64,000 nt of DNA, taken from contig JAEZTF010000010.1 in the NCBI GenBank assembly GCA_023443725.1, positions 29,948-93,947 on the forward strand, given 5' to 3'. Positions 5,140-60,432 of this stretch are shown here, one piece after another (within the stretch, counting starts at the first letter, position 1; each line of letters opens with the position of its first letter). The notes beneath the pieces are model-generated. The model was not told the DNA's origin. It did no database searches and saw nothing but the letters and a program-made list of their open reading frames with translations. A program made the translations under genes and the position numbers. The DNA comes from Candidatus Parcubacteria bacterium. GTDB taxonomy: Bacteria; Patescibacteriota; Microgenomatia; UBA12405.

Positions 5140-5210
5140 GCGGCTATAGTTTAGTGGTAAAATGTGTCCTTCCCAAGGATAAGTCGAGGGTTCAATTCCC
5201 TCTAGCCGCT
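5140..5210 (+). tRNA. tRNA-Gly (anticodon CCC).
   Basis: Cloverleaf by eye: acceptor GCGGCTA/TAGCCGC, anticodon loop TTCCCAA, T-loop TTCAATT. No encoded CCA. Confidence 0.8.
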
Positions 5211-5225
5211 CTCTTTTTATATTAG

Positions 5226-5296
5226 GCCGATATAGTTCAACGGCAGAACTGCGGTTTCGTAAACCGTCGATGGTAGTTCGACTCTACCTATCGGCT
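5226..5296 (+). tRNA. tRNA-Thr (anticodon CGT).
   Basis: Acceptor GCCGATA/TATCGGC, anticodon stem GCGGT/ACCGT, loop TTCGTAA, T-loop TTCGACT. Confidence 0.8.
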
Positions 5297-5324
5297 CTGA
5301 AAATTTGATACAATAAGTAACATT

Positions 5325-36216: not shown

Positions 36217-37536
36217 TTATTTATTTAACTGCTTTTCCATCCAACTGTCAATTTTATCGATAGAAACTCTAATTTGTTTCATAGTGTCACGATCACGAAT
36301 TGAAACAGTGTTATCTTCTAATGTTTGATAATCAACTACAGTACACCATGGTGTTCCTATTTCATCTTGACGACGATATTTTTTCCCAATATTACTACTA
36401 TCATCCCAATCAATAGAATATTTTTGACTTAATTGTTTATAGAGCTTTTCGGCTTTGTCAATTAATTCTGGTTTATTGGCAGCTAGAGGGAAAATAGCCA
36501 TCTTATAGGCAGAAACTTTAGGGTTCACTTTTAAAACAGTTCTAACATCTCCTGACTCAGTTTTCTCTTCTTGGTAAGCATCGAGAAGCATAAAAAAGAA
36601 ACTACGATCGACTCCTCCAGAGGTTTCAGTAATCCATGGGATATATCTCTCATGTGTAGTCGGATCGATATAAGATAGGTCTTGTCCACTAAACTTAGAA
36701 TGTTGAGTTAAATCATAATCTGATCGCCAATGTATTCCTTCCATTTCGGCCCATCCCCAGGGAGCATTATATTCAATATCAAAAGCTTTTTTAGCATAGA
36801 AAGCCAATTCATCCTTGCCATGTTCTCTAAATCTTAAATTATCTTGATTGTTAAATAATGATTTATACCAATTGATACGAGTTTCTTTCCAATATTCAAA
36901 CCATTTATCCATTTCATCTGGATGAACAAAATATTGAATATCCCATTGTTCGAATTCTCGAGTACGATAAAGGAAATTTTTAGGAGTAATTTCATTTCTG
37001 AAAGCTTTTCCGATTTGAGCGATACCAAAAGGTACTTTAACTCGAGTAGAGTCGACAATATTTTTAAAATCTAAATAAATAGTTTGGCAAGCTTCTCCTC
37101 GTAAATAGGCATGAAGTTTTTCACCTTCTATAACTCCAATTTCAGTTTCAAATAATATATTGTATTTTCGTCCCTCGGTAAATTGTCCACCACATTCTGG
37201 ACATTTAGACGGATCATCAAGTAAATCAGGTCGAAAACGTTTGTGACATGATTTACATTCAACCATGATATCGGCAAAATTTTTGACATGTCCTGAAGCT
37301 TCCCAGACTCGAGGGTGAGTAATAATTGATCCGTCGATCATAACAACATCTTGTCGAGAGGTAACATTATCGTGAATCCAAAGATCTTTCCAATTTTTTT
37401 TCATGAGAGAACCGATTGGTCCGTAATCATAAAAACCTTGAACACCGCCATAAATTTCAGAATTTTGAAAAATTATTCCTCTGCGTTTACAGAGACTGAC
37501 GATTTTGCTGACAAGATCATTTTGATTGTCTGACAT
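36217..37536 (-). CDS. glyQS: Glycyl-tRNA synthetase, alpha2 (GlyQS) type.
   Basis: Class II motifs with characteristic FRNEITPKNFLYRTREFEQ and YIPWITETSGGVDR. The start is moved to MSDNQ with RBS AGGAGA. Confidence 0.85.
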   Translation of the reverse strand: MSDNQNDLVSKIVSLCKRRGIIFQNSEIYGGVQGFYDYGPIGSLMKKNWKDLWIHDNVTSRQDVVMIDGSIITHPRVWEASGHVKNFADIMVECKSCHKRFRPDLLDDPSKCPECGGQFTEGRKYNILFETEIGVIEGEKLHAYLRGEACQTIYLDFKNIVDSTRVKVPFGIAQIGKAFRNEITPKNFLYRTREFEQWDIQYFVHPDEMDKWFEYWKETRINWYKSLFNNQDNLRFREHGKDELAFYAKKAFDIEYNAPWGWAEMEGIHWRSDYDLTQHSKFSGQDLSYIDPTTHERYIPWITETSGGVDRSFFFMLLDAYQEEKTESGDVRTVLKVNPKVSAYKMAIFPLAANKPELIDKAEKLYKQLSQKYSIDWDDSSNIGKKYRRQDEIGTPWCTVVDYQTLEDNTVSIRDRDTMKQIRVSIDKIDSWMEKQLNK

Positions 37537-37705
37537 AGTTCTCCTAAAAAACAATTAATATTTTTTAGGGATCCCGATAAATCAGGACGGTTCCACCCTA
37601 TTTGATAAATTATTTTTTCCAGTTAATTTATCCTCTTTTATTTTTCGGCTCGAGATTTGCCAAATCTGTCATTGCCTTGATGTTGAAGTTTATCTTGTTT
37701 TAAGA
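37537..37705 (-). ncRNA. Candidate minimal (glyQS-type) T-box leader.
   Basis: The minus strand contains AATAGGGTGGAACCGTCC, which matches the T-box consensus AGGGUGGNACCGCG at 12 of 14 positions. A GGC-A specifier candidate lies upstream. An A/U hairpin overlaps the SD just before the ATG. Confidence 0.4.
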
Positions 37706-37711
37706 AAACTG

Positions 37712-39136
37712 TCAATTCAGTTTGTTTACCTTATAAACTACCCACTTAGAATTTTCGATCTGCCAATAATTGTCAGGAGAATCTTTTCTAAAATGACTCA
37801 TCTCGTAAGCTGGGTCTTCTCTTATTTTGTCCCATGAGTTGTAACTGATCACATATAATGTTTTTGGATTTTGATAATCGTCAGACGCTAAGGGATATAT
37901 GTTTTGAACTTTCAAAAGATCTCGAAATCGACTACCTTTGGTGTTGCCGTCTGGACTTTGTAAAACTACTAGATTAAAAGTATTACTATTTGATTGAGAC
38001 AAATCATTTTTAATAATATTAGTTATTTTATTTAGAGCCTCTATATTATTAGTTGAATCATTTTGAAAAAGTATTTTTGGTAAAGAAAGCAAACTACTAA
38101 TGATAAGACTGATAATAATTAATCTGGAAATGTTTGATTTTAAATTTTTTGCTAACCATAAAATAAAAAACAAAATAGCTGGAATTAAATAACGATTAGC
38201 AATAGGTGAAGAAATAAAAGACAAACCTAAAAATTGAAATAAAATAGGTATTAAAAATAAGTTTAAGGAGGTTTTTTTTAAACGTATATTTTTAACAAAA
38301 AGTATTGTTGATAGTAATAATATTATCCAGATAAATATTTTGTTTCCATAAGATATGTATTGAATAAATTGTAACGGAGTGTTGATAAATTTAATAAAGA
38401 AATTGATTATACTGAAATGGCTATTGGATGAGATAGGACTAAAATATAACATTCGACTTAAGAATAGTCCTGGTGGATGGGTAATATCGAAAATAATGAA
38501 AGGAACGATAGAAATAAATAATCCAATTAAATACAAAATAATATCTTTTATCTTTTTATTTTTTTTATAAACAAGAAAAACTAATCCTAAACAAAAAAAT
38601 ATTGAATACCAATGTTGGTGAACTGTTAAACCAAATATTATGCCACTAATTAATATATTTAGAGGAAAATTTGAATTGAGAATTAATATTCCTAGAATTT
38701 GCCAGAATGGAATAAAATGTGGATTCCATGCCCATCTAGAAGTTTCTACATAAGGAGAAAGTATAACTGGTAATAAAAAAATAGGTAACCATTTTATTTT
38801 TTCTTTTTTTAAAAATAACCAAATTAATAAAACAGTCAATGAACCGTAAAAAGCAGTAGCCAAAGCTGGTCCAAGAGGATTGTTTTTTGAAAAAAATACA
38901 AATGGTAGAGAAATATAATATGTTAACGAACTAAAAATACCAGTGTTGCCTTCAGCAATTGGCCCAATAAGGGTGATATCTTTTTGATCAATAATTCTTT
39001 TTATGCTTACTAAATCACTTGATTCATCACGAGTAAATCTGGCCGTGATTTTAAGATTATAAAATCGAACAAAAATAGTGAATATAAATATCAAAAATAA
39101 TAGAAGTATTTTTTTATTTAATTTTATTTTTTTCAT
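37712..39136 (-). CDS. GT-C fold glycosyltransferase (PMT/ArnT-like, GT39/83-type).
   Basis: At least 11 TM helices. First-loop DE motif FTRDESSDLVS. Confidence 0.6.
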   Translation of the reverse strand: MKKIKLNKKILLLFLIFIFTIFVRFYNLKITARFTRDESSDLVSIKRIIDQKDITLIGPIAEGNTGIFSSLTYYISLPFVFFSKNNPLGPALATAFYGSLTVLLIWLFLKKEKIKWLPIFLLPVILSPYVETSRWAWNPHFIPFWQILGILILNSNFPLNILISGIIFGLTVHQHWYSIFFCLGLVFLVYKKNKKIKDIILYLIGLFISIVPFIIFDITHPPGLFLSRMLYFSPISSNSHFSIINFFIKFINTPLQFIQYISYGNKIFIWIILLLSTILFVKNIRLKKTSLNLFLIPILFQFLGLSFISSPIANRYLIPAILFFILWLAKNLKSNISRLIIISLIISSLLSLPKILFQNDSTNNIEALNKITNIIKNDLSQSNSNTFNLVVLQSPDGNTKGSRFRDLLKVQNIYPLASDDYQNPKTLYVISYNSWDKIREDPAYEMSHFRKDSPDNYWQIENSKWVVYKVNKLN

Positions 39137-59169: not shown

Positions 59170-59203
59170 TTGACATTGTTTTGATATTTGTTAAAGTATT
59201 TTT

Positions 59204-59290
59204 AGTTTGTCGAGAGAGTCTTAAAAAAGACTAGCAACCGAGCCTCAAAGGGGTCACGGTGCAATTCCCTACTTGGGAGGACAAGCCTTT
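59204..59290 (+). ncRNA. Candidate SAM riboswitch (SAM-I clan or SAM-I/IV-like variant) in the metK leader.
   Basis: P1 TTTGTC...GACAAG. The junction GAGAGAG matches the SAM-I J1/2-P2 AGAGAGG. The strongly conserved core elements GCAACC and GGTGCAATTCC (SAM-I GGUGCYAAUUCC) are present, and a P4-like hairpin TCCCtacttGGGA follows. It lies downstream of a TTGACA(59170)-16-TAAAGT promoter. Confidence 0.5.
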
Positions 59291-59313
59291 ATAAATTTAA
59301 ATAAAGGAAAAAT

Positions 59314-60432
59314 ATGAATTATTCCCTATTTACGTCAGAATCAGTTTGTGCTGGTCATCCCGATAAAATTTGTGACCAAATTTCAGATACTGTTTTAGAT
59401 ACTGCTTTAGAAATTGATAGAAATTCAAGAGTTGCTTTAGAAACTTTAGTGACCACTAATAAAGTAATAATGGCAGGCGAAGTGACTTGTAGTAAAAAAT
59501 TAGACTATGGACAAATCGCAAAACAAGTAATTAAAGATTTAGGTTATACTAATCCTCTTTTAGGTTTTGATACAAATGCAGACATAGAAGTATTGGTTCA
59601 TCAACAATCAAAAGATATTGCAATTGGAGCCGATAATGACGGTGCAGGTGATCAAGGAATGATGTTTGGTTATGCTTGTAATGAAACACCACAATTGATG
59701 CCATTATCAATTATGTTGTCACAAGAATTATGCAAAAAAATGGATAAACTGCAGTTTGAAAGATTAAATTATTTAAGACCAGATGGTAAGGCAGAAGTGA
59801 CAATTAAATATAATCAAGGAAAACCAGTGGAAATAGTAAAAGTGGTTTTGGCTAAACCAATGGATCTAATAGTTGAAGATACTCAAGCAAAAAAAGATTT
59901 GTATGAATTGGCTGTGTTGCCAATTTTGGAAAAATATAAACTTAATAAAGTAAGCGTAGAAAATGTAATTTTAAATGGTACAGGTAGATGGGAAATTGGT
60001 GGACCAGCAACAGATACTGGAGTAACTGGTCGAAAAATTGTAGTCGATACTTATGGTGGTATGGGACGAATTGGTGGAGGATGTTTTTCAGGTAAAGATC
60101 CAACAAAAGTAGATAGAAGTGCAGCTTATGCTGCTAGATTTATTGCCAAAAATGTAGTGGCTGCAGGATTGGCTGATCGTTGTGAAGTCCAATTGGCCTA
60201 TGTAATTGGTGTTAGAGATCCAATTTCAAAAGCAATTGAAACTTTTGGAACAAACAAAAAAGAAATAAATAAAATTGAAGAATTTGCTTGGAATTTAATG
60301 AATTTATCGGTTAAAGGAATAATTGATAAATTTGATTTAAAAAGACCAATTTACAAAAATACAGCTAGATATGGTCATTTTGGATATGATGAATATCCTT
60401 GGGAACAAATCAAAACCCCTCTGTCTCGATAA
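59314..60432 (+). CDS. metK: S-adenosylmethionine synthetase.
   Basis: FTSESVCAGHPDKICDQISD, GGGCFSGKDPTKVDRSAAYAARFIAKNVVAAGLA. Confidence 0.95.
   Translation: MNYSLFTSESVCAGHPDKICDQISDTVLDTALEIDRNSRVALETLVTTNKVIMAGEVTCSKKLDYGQIAKQVIKDLGYTNPLLGFDTNADIEVLVHQQSKDIAIGADNDGAGDQGMMFGYACNETPQLMPLSIMLSQELCKKMDKLQFERLNYLRPDGKAEVTIKYNQGKPVEIVKVVLAKPMDLIVEDTQAKKDLYELAVLPILEKYKLNKVSVENVILNGTGRWEIGGPATDTGVTGRKIVVDTYGGMGRIGGGCFSGKDPTKVDRSAAYAARFIAKNVVAAGLADRCEVQLAYVIGVRDPISKAIETFGTNKKEINKIEEFAWNLMNLSVKGIIDKFDLKRPIYKNTARYGHFGYDEYPWEQIKTPLSR

Follow-up and report, generated by a model that had tools for sequence, protein, structure and literature searches.

A stripped-down T-box leader upstream of the dimeric-type glycyl-tRNA synthetase gene of a Shapirobacteria genome, and mini glycyl T-boxes beyond the Candidate Phyla Radiation

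Our comparative and structural analyses confirm that minus-strand positions 37676-37540 of the window (the whole 64-kb stretch of DNA that was analysed) form a T-box leader, real but unusually stripped-down, 5′ of a gene for a dimeric-type glycyl-tRNA synthetase (GlyRS). We propose, and consider it likely, that this leader acts as a T-box riboswitch of minimal design, in which uncharged tRNA-Gly would be sensed and would uncover the Shine-Dalgarno (SD) sequence of glyS. The leader is about 140 nt long and lies in the 175-nt spacer (37711-37537) between glyS and its upstream neighbour on the minus strand, a membrane-protein open reading frame that ends at 37712. A preceding sequence-only reading of this DNA had called the downstream gene glyQS, an assignment that we revise, since the matches to NF003211 (563 bits) and TIGR00389 identify the alpha2, 'dimeric' enzyme. 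Its suggestion that the host might belong to the Candidate Phyla Radiation (CPR) is borne out by the relatives of the GlyRS protein and by its exact-sequence cluster, which are Candidatus Shapirobacteria (CPR/Patescibacteria). The strings that it quoted all occur on the minus strand where it had placed them. Among them is a near-consensus T-box sequence, AATAGGGTGGAACCGTCC, at 37602-37585; AGGGTGGNACCG occurs once in the 64-kb window, against 0.11 occurrences expected by chance. The locus comprises the following elements.

37687-37715, minus strand: promoter-like site, TTGACA (37715-37710), a 17-nt spacer and TAAACT (37692-37687), with 10/12 matches.
37647-37676, minus strand: ultrashort Stem I, consisting of a C-stem GGC/GCC, a K-turn (bulge AAU, tandem GA...GA), a C.C mismatch, a helix AGAU/AUCU and a 7-nt terminal specifier loop UUGGCAA (RF00230 alignment; covariation).
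37659-37661, minus strand: specifier GGC (invariant in 21/21 leaders), which codes for glycine and is complementary to anticodon GCC; the next base is the conserved purine A37658.
37633-37646, minus strand: linker of 14 nt, single-stranded and A-rich, with AAGAG (RRRxG motif) at its 3′ end (Stem II positions deleted in the RF00230 alignment).
37604-37632, minus strand: Stem III, GAUAAAUUA/UAAUUUAUC with loop ACUGGAAAAAA, followed by AA at 37603-37602 (covariation of helix 3).
37566-37600, minus strand: antisequestrator (antiterminator-like) fold made up of A1, the T-box bulge and A2 (RF00230 alignment; covariation).
37600-37596 with 37570-37566, minus strand: A1, UAGGG/CCCUA.
37595-37589, minus strand: 7-nt T-box bulge UGGAACC (UGGNACC invariant).
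37588-37571, minus strand: A2, GUCCUGA/UCGGGAU, with a G.U closing pair.
37540-37571, minus strand: predicted sequestrator hairpin, UCCCUAAAAAAUA (37571-37559) with UGUUUUUUAGG.GA (37553-37540) (fold prediction; equivalents in relatives).
37541-37545, minus strand: SD sequence AGGAG, 4/5 bases of which are paired in the sequestrator.
36217-37536, minus strand, ATG at 37536: glyS, dimeric (alpha2) glycine--tRNA ligase, 439 aa (NF003211, 563.5 bits; TIGR00389 glyS_dimeric; cluster named Candidatus Shapirobacteria glycine--tRNA ligase).

The Stem I with a GGC specifier that the sequence-only reading had anticipated is present at 37676-37647, with GGC at 37661-37659. Its helix above the K-turn comprises 4-5 bp, and the whole element is, in effect, a canonical Stem I truncated just above the specifier; the distance from codon to K-turn and the sequence presumably agree with those of the canonical glyQS leader. 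The promoter-like site implies a putative transcript start near 37680, a few nucleotides before Stem I. A -10 hexamer with at most one mismatch to TATAAT precedes GGC by 13-36 nt in 16 of the 21 orthologous leaders, and this spacing leaves no room for a hidden long Stem I. Neither Stem II nor a IIA/B pseudoknot lies between Stem I and Stem III, in the sequence or in the RF00230 alignment. The likeness to the minimal glyQS T-box that had been claimed for the leader consequently holds for the missing Stem II, in whose place stands the single-stranded linker, and fails for Stem I, which, unlike that of glyQS, is cut off at the specifier. As a separate observation, the Stem III loop of the window leader contains the motif AAYUGGA (37624-37618, minus strand) and with it another copy of UGGA, the same four bases that make up the NCCA-binding part of the bulge. 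AAYUGGA also occurs in the Stem III loops of L001, L004, L005, L019, L039 and L041, being kept in several sub-clades and missing from tiny loops.

How does this leader relate to the T-box family as modelled in Rfam? At the gathering score of RF00230 (93) the window contains no T-box match, so that the database check proposed by the sequence-only reading fails at this level, and succeeds in a permissive search, which returns a full-length match at 37681-37564 (minus strand) with 34.2 bits (E = 3.8e-6 in a local search and 6.9e-4 when the whole window is compared with all 4227 families). This alignment places the base of the model's Stem I on GGC-AAUGA...GAGCC (K-turn), reduces 76 consensus positions of upper Stem I to 7 nt, deletes the Stem II positions, and is good over Stem III and AAAUAGGGUGGAACCG...CCCUA. 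The leaders of the 20 relatives described below likewise score 23-50 bits, all below threshold. Searches with RF00230 and with our own covariance model, R1, found neither a second T-box nor one of other specificity in the window. Features of the family that the leader possesses are a specifier matching the amino acid of the regulated gene and followed by a purine, the K-turn, the flanks of Stem III, the UGGNACC bulge fold and an exclusive downstream helix; it lacks the long Stem I with AG bulge and distal loop, which form the tRNA-elbow platform, and falls short of the gathering score. With class II (the actinobacterial ileS type) it shares an ultrashort Stem I and, according to the predicted fold, an SD sequence located in the alternative helix, and it has the 14-nt A-rich linker instead of a Stem II with S-turn plus Stem IIA/B pseudoknot. 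The leader is a T-box by its mechanism-defining features, and it departs both from the long Stem I of RF00230 and from the Stem II of class II.

Comparison among relatives supports this assignment, which is backed by the RF00230 alignment, by the recurrence of the leader at orthologous loci and by covariation in all helices. Within a comparison set of GlyRS loci from 80 other species, 20 loci carry an equal leader directly 5′ of the start codon. Model R1, built from these 20 and the window leader, retrieved exactly the same 21 leaders and nothing else from 389 kb, with 42-99 bits (85.3 for the window). In its alignment 91.3% of cells are paired, and compensatory changes occur in 26/27 pairs; the covariation score is 0.713, compared with 0.246 in shuffles (0/500 reach 0.713), and slid controls, in which partners were shifted by 1-3 columns, are only 36-50% paired. 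Helices 1 and 2 (Stem I) are 82-83% paired with compensatory changes in 8/8 pairs, helix 3 (Stem III) is 97.6% paired with 7/7, and helices 4 and 5 (antisequestrator) are 97% and 92% paired, respectively, with 11/12. Invariant columns in the 21 leaders are GGC, the AA after Stem III and G-UGG-N-ACC. The base after GGC is A in 15 leaders and U in 6, RRRxG precedes Stem III in the window and most relatives, and the K-turn can be recognised by eye in about 16 of the 21, being missing in L022, L024, L028 and L055. Three leaders (L028 1383-1478, L030 1370-1458 and L078 1368-1461) apparently have no normal Stem III, the stem being absent or 4 bp long, although every T-box is said to have one.

At least 56 related species have no T-box leader at glyS. 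In 44 of these 56 T-box-less GlyRS loci the start codon follows an exact TATAAT at a distance of 4-9 nt (L002, L008-L015, L018, L020-L021, L023 and others; about 1480-1501), a position that implies leaderless glyS mRNAs. The interleaving of T-box and leaderless forms across levels of GlyRS identity suggests repeated gain or loss. Many metagenome-assembled genomes whose GlyRS is 83-94% identical to the Shapirobacteria protein bear the title 'uncultured Gammaproteobacteria bacterium', and a single one that of 'Candidatus Methanoperedens' (L001, L004-L007, L009 and others); these appear to be mislabelled.

The region before the start codon offers a plausible expression platform. The SD sequence AGGAG sits 4 nt before the ATG at 37536, and the 3′ strand of A1 (CCCUA) can alternatively pair with UUUUUUAGG.G / UAGG of the SD region. 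Because the sequestrator takes up this strand and covers the SD sequence, it excludes A1. The A/U hairpin CCUAAAAAA/UUUUUUAGG at 37569-37543, which the sequence-only reading had described as overlapping the SD sequence, is part of the minimum-free-energy fold. On its own the sequestrator hairpin has a predicted dG of -11.3 kcal/mol (z = -4.3), and forming A1 adds only -5.1 kcal/mol, which suggests that the default state would be sequestered. Equivalent hairpins are found in 17-18/21 leaders, 2-7 nt before the AUG and followed by non-U tails, with z-scores of -2.6 to -5.5; these z-scores derive from mononucleotide shuffles, and A/U-rich hairpins such as this one arise easily in a genome of about 30% G+C. 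The sequestrator partner varies together with A1 (CCCU-AGG, CUCU-AGAG, UCCU-AGGA). The partner table was assembled from per-sequence folds and a register table, the MAFFT alignment of the sequestrator region being too poor for pair counting, and constitutes weaker evidence because pairs in predicted folds are complementary by construction. The sequestrators of 3-4 relatives are weak or of a different kind (L044, L055, L059, L078). A terminator scan of 37400-37900 found no terminator in the leader, and the hairpin is not followed by a U-tract. The only terminator-like site in the scanned region is a hairpin with a T-run, TCTCTGTAAACGCAGAGG AATAATTTTT, at 37495-37478 (minus strand), 42-59 nt inside the glyS coding region; it would be unable to compete with A1 or the antisequestrator, and we regard it as a chance match. 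Taken together, structure and comparison argue for translational control by uncovering of the SD sequence, and the proposal of translational action made from the sequence is strengthened by the pairing of the A1 3′ strand with SD-like purines in those 17-18/21 leaders.

The architecture is not confined to the CPR. A metagenome search with the pattern ATGA-N5-TTGGC-N5-8-GAG-N32-62-GTGGAACC yielded 80 loci among the matches listed, and R1 confirms at least 18 mini leaders among these; about 60 of the other 62 listed loci lack Stem I/A1 complementarity and were discarded as chance matches. An independent set of the 18 metagenomic leaders and 2 canonical T-boxes from the same contigs is 90% paired, with compensatory changes in 24/27 pairs. 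The confirmed leaders include one of Shapirobacteria type (L129) and others 5′ of glyQ in Acidaminococcus fermentans, which belongs to the Negativicutes and has been cultured (L124 10955-11061; also L125, L139, L108 and L085). The L124 leader carries a classical terminator, CCCGUCCCUGUAAUG...CAGAGACGGGAGUUUUU; its score against RF00230 is 42.7 bits, and it is presumably unannotated. Further mini leaders among the matches listed are L137, L094, L095, L099, L082, L134, L086 and others. Several other GlyRS genes are also preceded by confirmed leaders. All share with the window leader the K-turn, the 4-5 bp helix, the terminal UUGGCA loop, the lack of Stem II, Stem III and the UGGAACC discriminator. 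Most metagenomic leaders carry a G+C-rich terminator and U-tract, whereas the Shapirobacteria version carries an SD sequestrator. Against RF00230 the metagenomic mini leaders reach 30-45 bits; the canonical T-boxes that precede other genes on contigs L094 and L117 reach 108-124 bits, and the mini glycyl leaders there 41-45. With every mini leader below threshold, Rfam misses the class systematically. Two mini glycyl T-boxes, L117 9402-9499 and L149 8772-8866, are located 5′ of non-synthetase genes, which by Pfam encode a xylose isomerase-like TIM-barrel protein and a LOG/'lysine decarboxylase'-family protein.

What could such a small leader do? We propose the following model. The anticodon of tRNA-Gly(GCC) would pair with GGC in the specifier loop. 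The 3′ end of an uncharged tRNA, UCCA, would pair with UGGA of the bulge and stabilise A1, leaving the SD sequence free and glyS translated. Glycyl-tRNA could not stabilise A1 in this way, so that the more stable sequestrator hairpin would form and block initiation. The tRNA would be held by these two contacts only, with no elbow-docking platform and no Stem II. Two contacts are plausibly enough, given that the GGC:GCC pairing is all-G-C and that the specifier is displayed in an anticodon-like 7-nt loop. Laid out as U-U-GGC-A-A, this loop resembles an anticodon loop, and the contact may be akin to an anticodon-anticodon kissing complex. According to a review (PMC7583486), truncated Stem I's show hardly any tRNA binding when Stem II is lacking, so that a leader with two contacts may hold its tRNA too weakly if no further factor assists. 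No gene for tRNA-Gly(GCC), the presumed ligand, was found in the window or in 38 fetched loci. The sole tRNA-Gly gene in the window, tRNA-Gly(CCC) at 5140-5211, has a U73 discriminator and no encoded CCA. The bulge UGGA (N = A) matches the U discriminator of this tRNA, which is the CCC and not the cognate GCC isoacceptor and would mismatch the third position of the GGC codon. In the window (5140-5297, plus strand), tRNA-Gly(CCC) adjoins tRNA-Thr(CGU), and the 3′ CCA is encoded in neither.

The same tRNA-Gly-sensing leader could instead act on transcription or on RNA stability, through termination, Rho or RNase access. We regard this as improbable, although related mini glycyl T-boxes do have classical G+C-rich terminators with U-tracts (L124 of Acidaminococcus glyQ, L095, L099, L082 and L134), the most distant relative, L078, reads GCUCGUC...GACGAGC followed by AUUUUU and is terminator-like, and the 3′ arm of the window hairpin itself contains a U6 run. 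In the window and 17 relatives, however, the hairpin covers the SD sequence and is followed, 2-7 nt before the AUG, by purine-rich, non-U sequence; its stem is almost purely A-U, and the terminator scan of the leader was negative. Uncovering of the SD sequence by uncharged tRNA-Gly remains the reading that we prefer.

We give still less credence, and indeed very little, to the idea that the leader is a decayed, non-regulating relic of a canonical glyQS-type T-box that has lost upper Stem I. The leader is missing from most related species, with TATAAT 4-9 nt before the start codon in 44/56, and a Stem I with neither platform nor Stem II binds tRNA poorly (PMC7583486), both of which would fit decay. 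A relic would not, however, preserve GGC, the K-turn, the purine flanks of Stem III and UGGNACC, all of which are kept, and compensatory changes are seen in every helix across 21 species and again in the independent 18 leaders from other lineages. The same covariation bears on whether an A/T-rich intergenic region merely happens to resemble the T-box consensus. Such a chance likeness might account for a sub-threshold RF00230 score, and the expectation of 0.11 matches to the 12-mer is non-zero; it is effectively refuted by the strength of the covariation, the conserved orthologous position, the full-length Rfam alignment and a fold z-score of -3.2 for the leader.

Two kinds of T-box have been described (PMC7583486, PMC11297988, PMC12990946), the transcriptional kind, with a long, elbow-docking Stem I, and the translational actinobacterial ileS kind, with an 'ultrashort' Stem I; the glycyl members of the transcriptional kind lack Stem II. 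With the glyQS/glyQ T-boxes of Bacillus subtilis, Geobacillus kaustophilus and Oceanobacillus iheyensis (RF00230, transcriptional 'class I') the window leader shares GGC plus A directly 5′ of a short helix above the K-turn, the absence of Stem II and IIA/B with a single-stranded linker in their place, a Stem III with RRRxG and AA, the bulge UGGAACC and the G.U pair at the base of A2. In L003 the specifier region reads GGCACUUCGCGAG, and the counterpart in B. subtilis glyQS reads GGCACUUCGAGC. Unlike those T-boxes, the window leader lacks the AG bulge, the distal loop and the elbow-docking interdigitated T-loop motif (IDTM), its specifier loop is terminal rather than internal, its predicted alternative helix would hide the SD sequence rather than terminate transcription, its gene encodes the dimeric GlyRS, and its score of 34 bits compares with a gathering score of 93.

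With the actinobacterial ileS T-boxes of Mycobacterium tuberculosis, M. smegmatis and Nocardia farcinica (translational 'class II') it shares an ultrashort Stem I without an elbow platform and the opposition of SD sequestrator and antisequestrator. In the ileS T-box, too, the specifier lies in a terminal loop. This translational class II is one reportedly treated by Sherwood et al. in 2015. Its members carry a Stem II with S-turn and the IIA/B pseudoknot, which, where Stem I is short, are reported to be essential for binding the tRNA (PMC7583486, PMC11297988). The window leader differs in having neither Stem II nor pseudoknot, in its specificity for Gly and not Ile, and in belonging to a different phylum; it combines the ultrashort Stem I of the ileS type with the absence of Stem II of the glycyl type. 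The Staphylococcus aureus glyS T-box is similar in placing a sole dimeric GlyRS gene under tRNA-Gly control, and differs in its long Stem I, stem Sa insertion and transcription terminator (PMC4574755, PMC9177973). A review (PMC7583486) has argued that the strength of the GGC:GCC pairing makes Stem II unnecessary, and the argument may hold for the platform too.

Our literature search found no paper linking T-boxes to CPR or Patescibacteria, and no description of mini glycyl T-boxes or of any natural T-box in which the Stem I platform and Stem II are both missing, an earlier mention being possible. The window holds another RNA element, a SAM-I/IV riboswitch aptamer (RF01725) at 59202-59323 (plus strand) with 42.7 bits, just over the gathering score of 41.1. 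The 3′ end of this aptamer overlaps the start of metK (S-adenosylmethionine synthetase by Pfam) at 59314, and it is a second riboswitch in this CPR genome, probably also translational.

On balance, by a modest preference, we hold that these leaders represent a widespread and hitherto undescribed class of 'two-contact' mini T-boxes with a core of about 90-125 nt, which would recognise tRNA-Gly through the terminal-loop specifier and the NCCA-binding bulge only, would act translationally in CPR (Shapirobacteria) and transcriptionally in Negativicutes (Acidaminococcus) and others, and are systematically missed by Rfam's threshold. The class has been overlooked by standard Rfam annotation even in a cultured gut bacterium. 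At about 100 nt, such a tRNA sensor would make an appealing building block in synthetic biology. A conserved natural leader with neither accessory feature represents a minimal tRNA-sensing unit outside the two described archetypes, and provides a direct test of whether the all-G-C GGC:GCC pairing makes accessory contacts dispensable. Should it prove functional, it would rank as the smallest T-box in nature, and neither accessory tRNA contact would be needed, even for co-transcriptional decisions. It would likewise extend the range of T-box regulation to the Candidate Phyla Radiation, organisms with reduced genomes.
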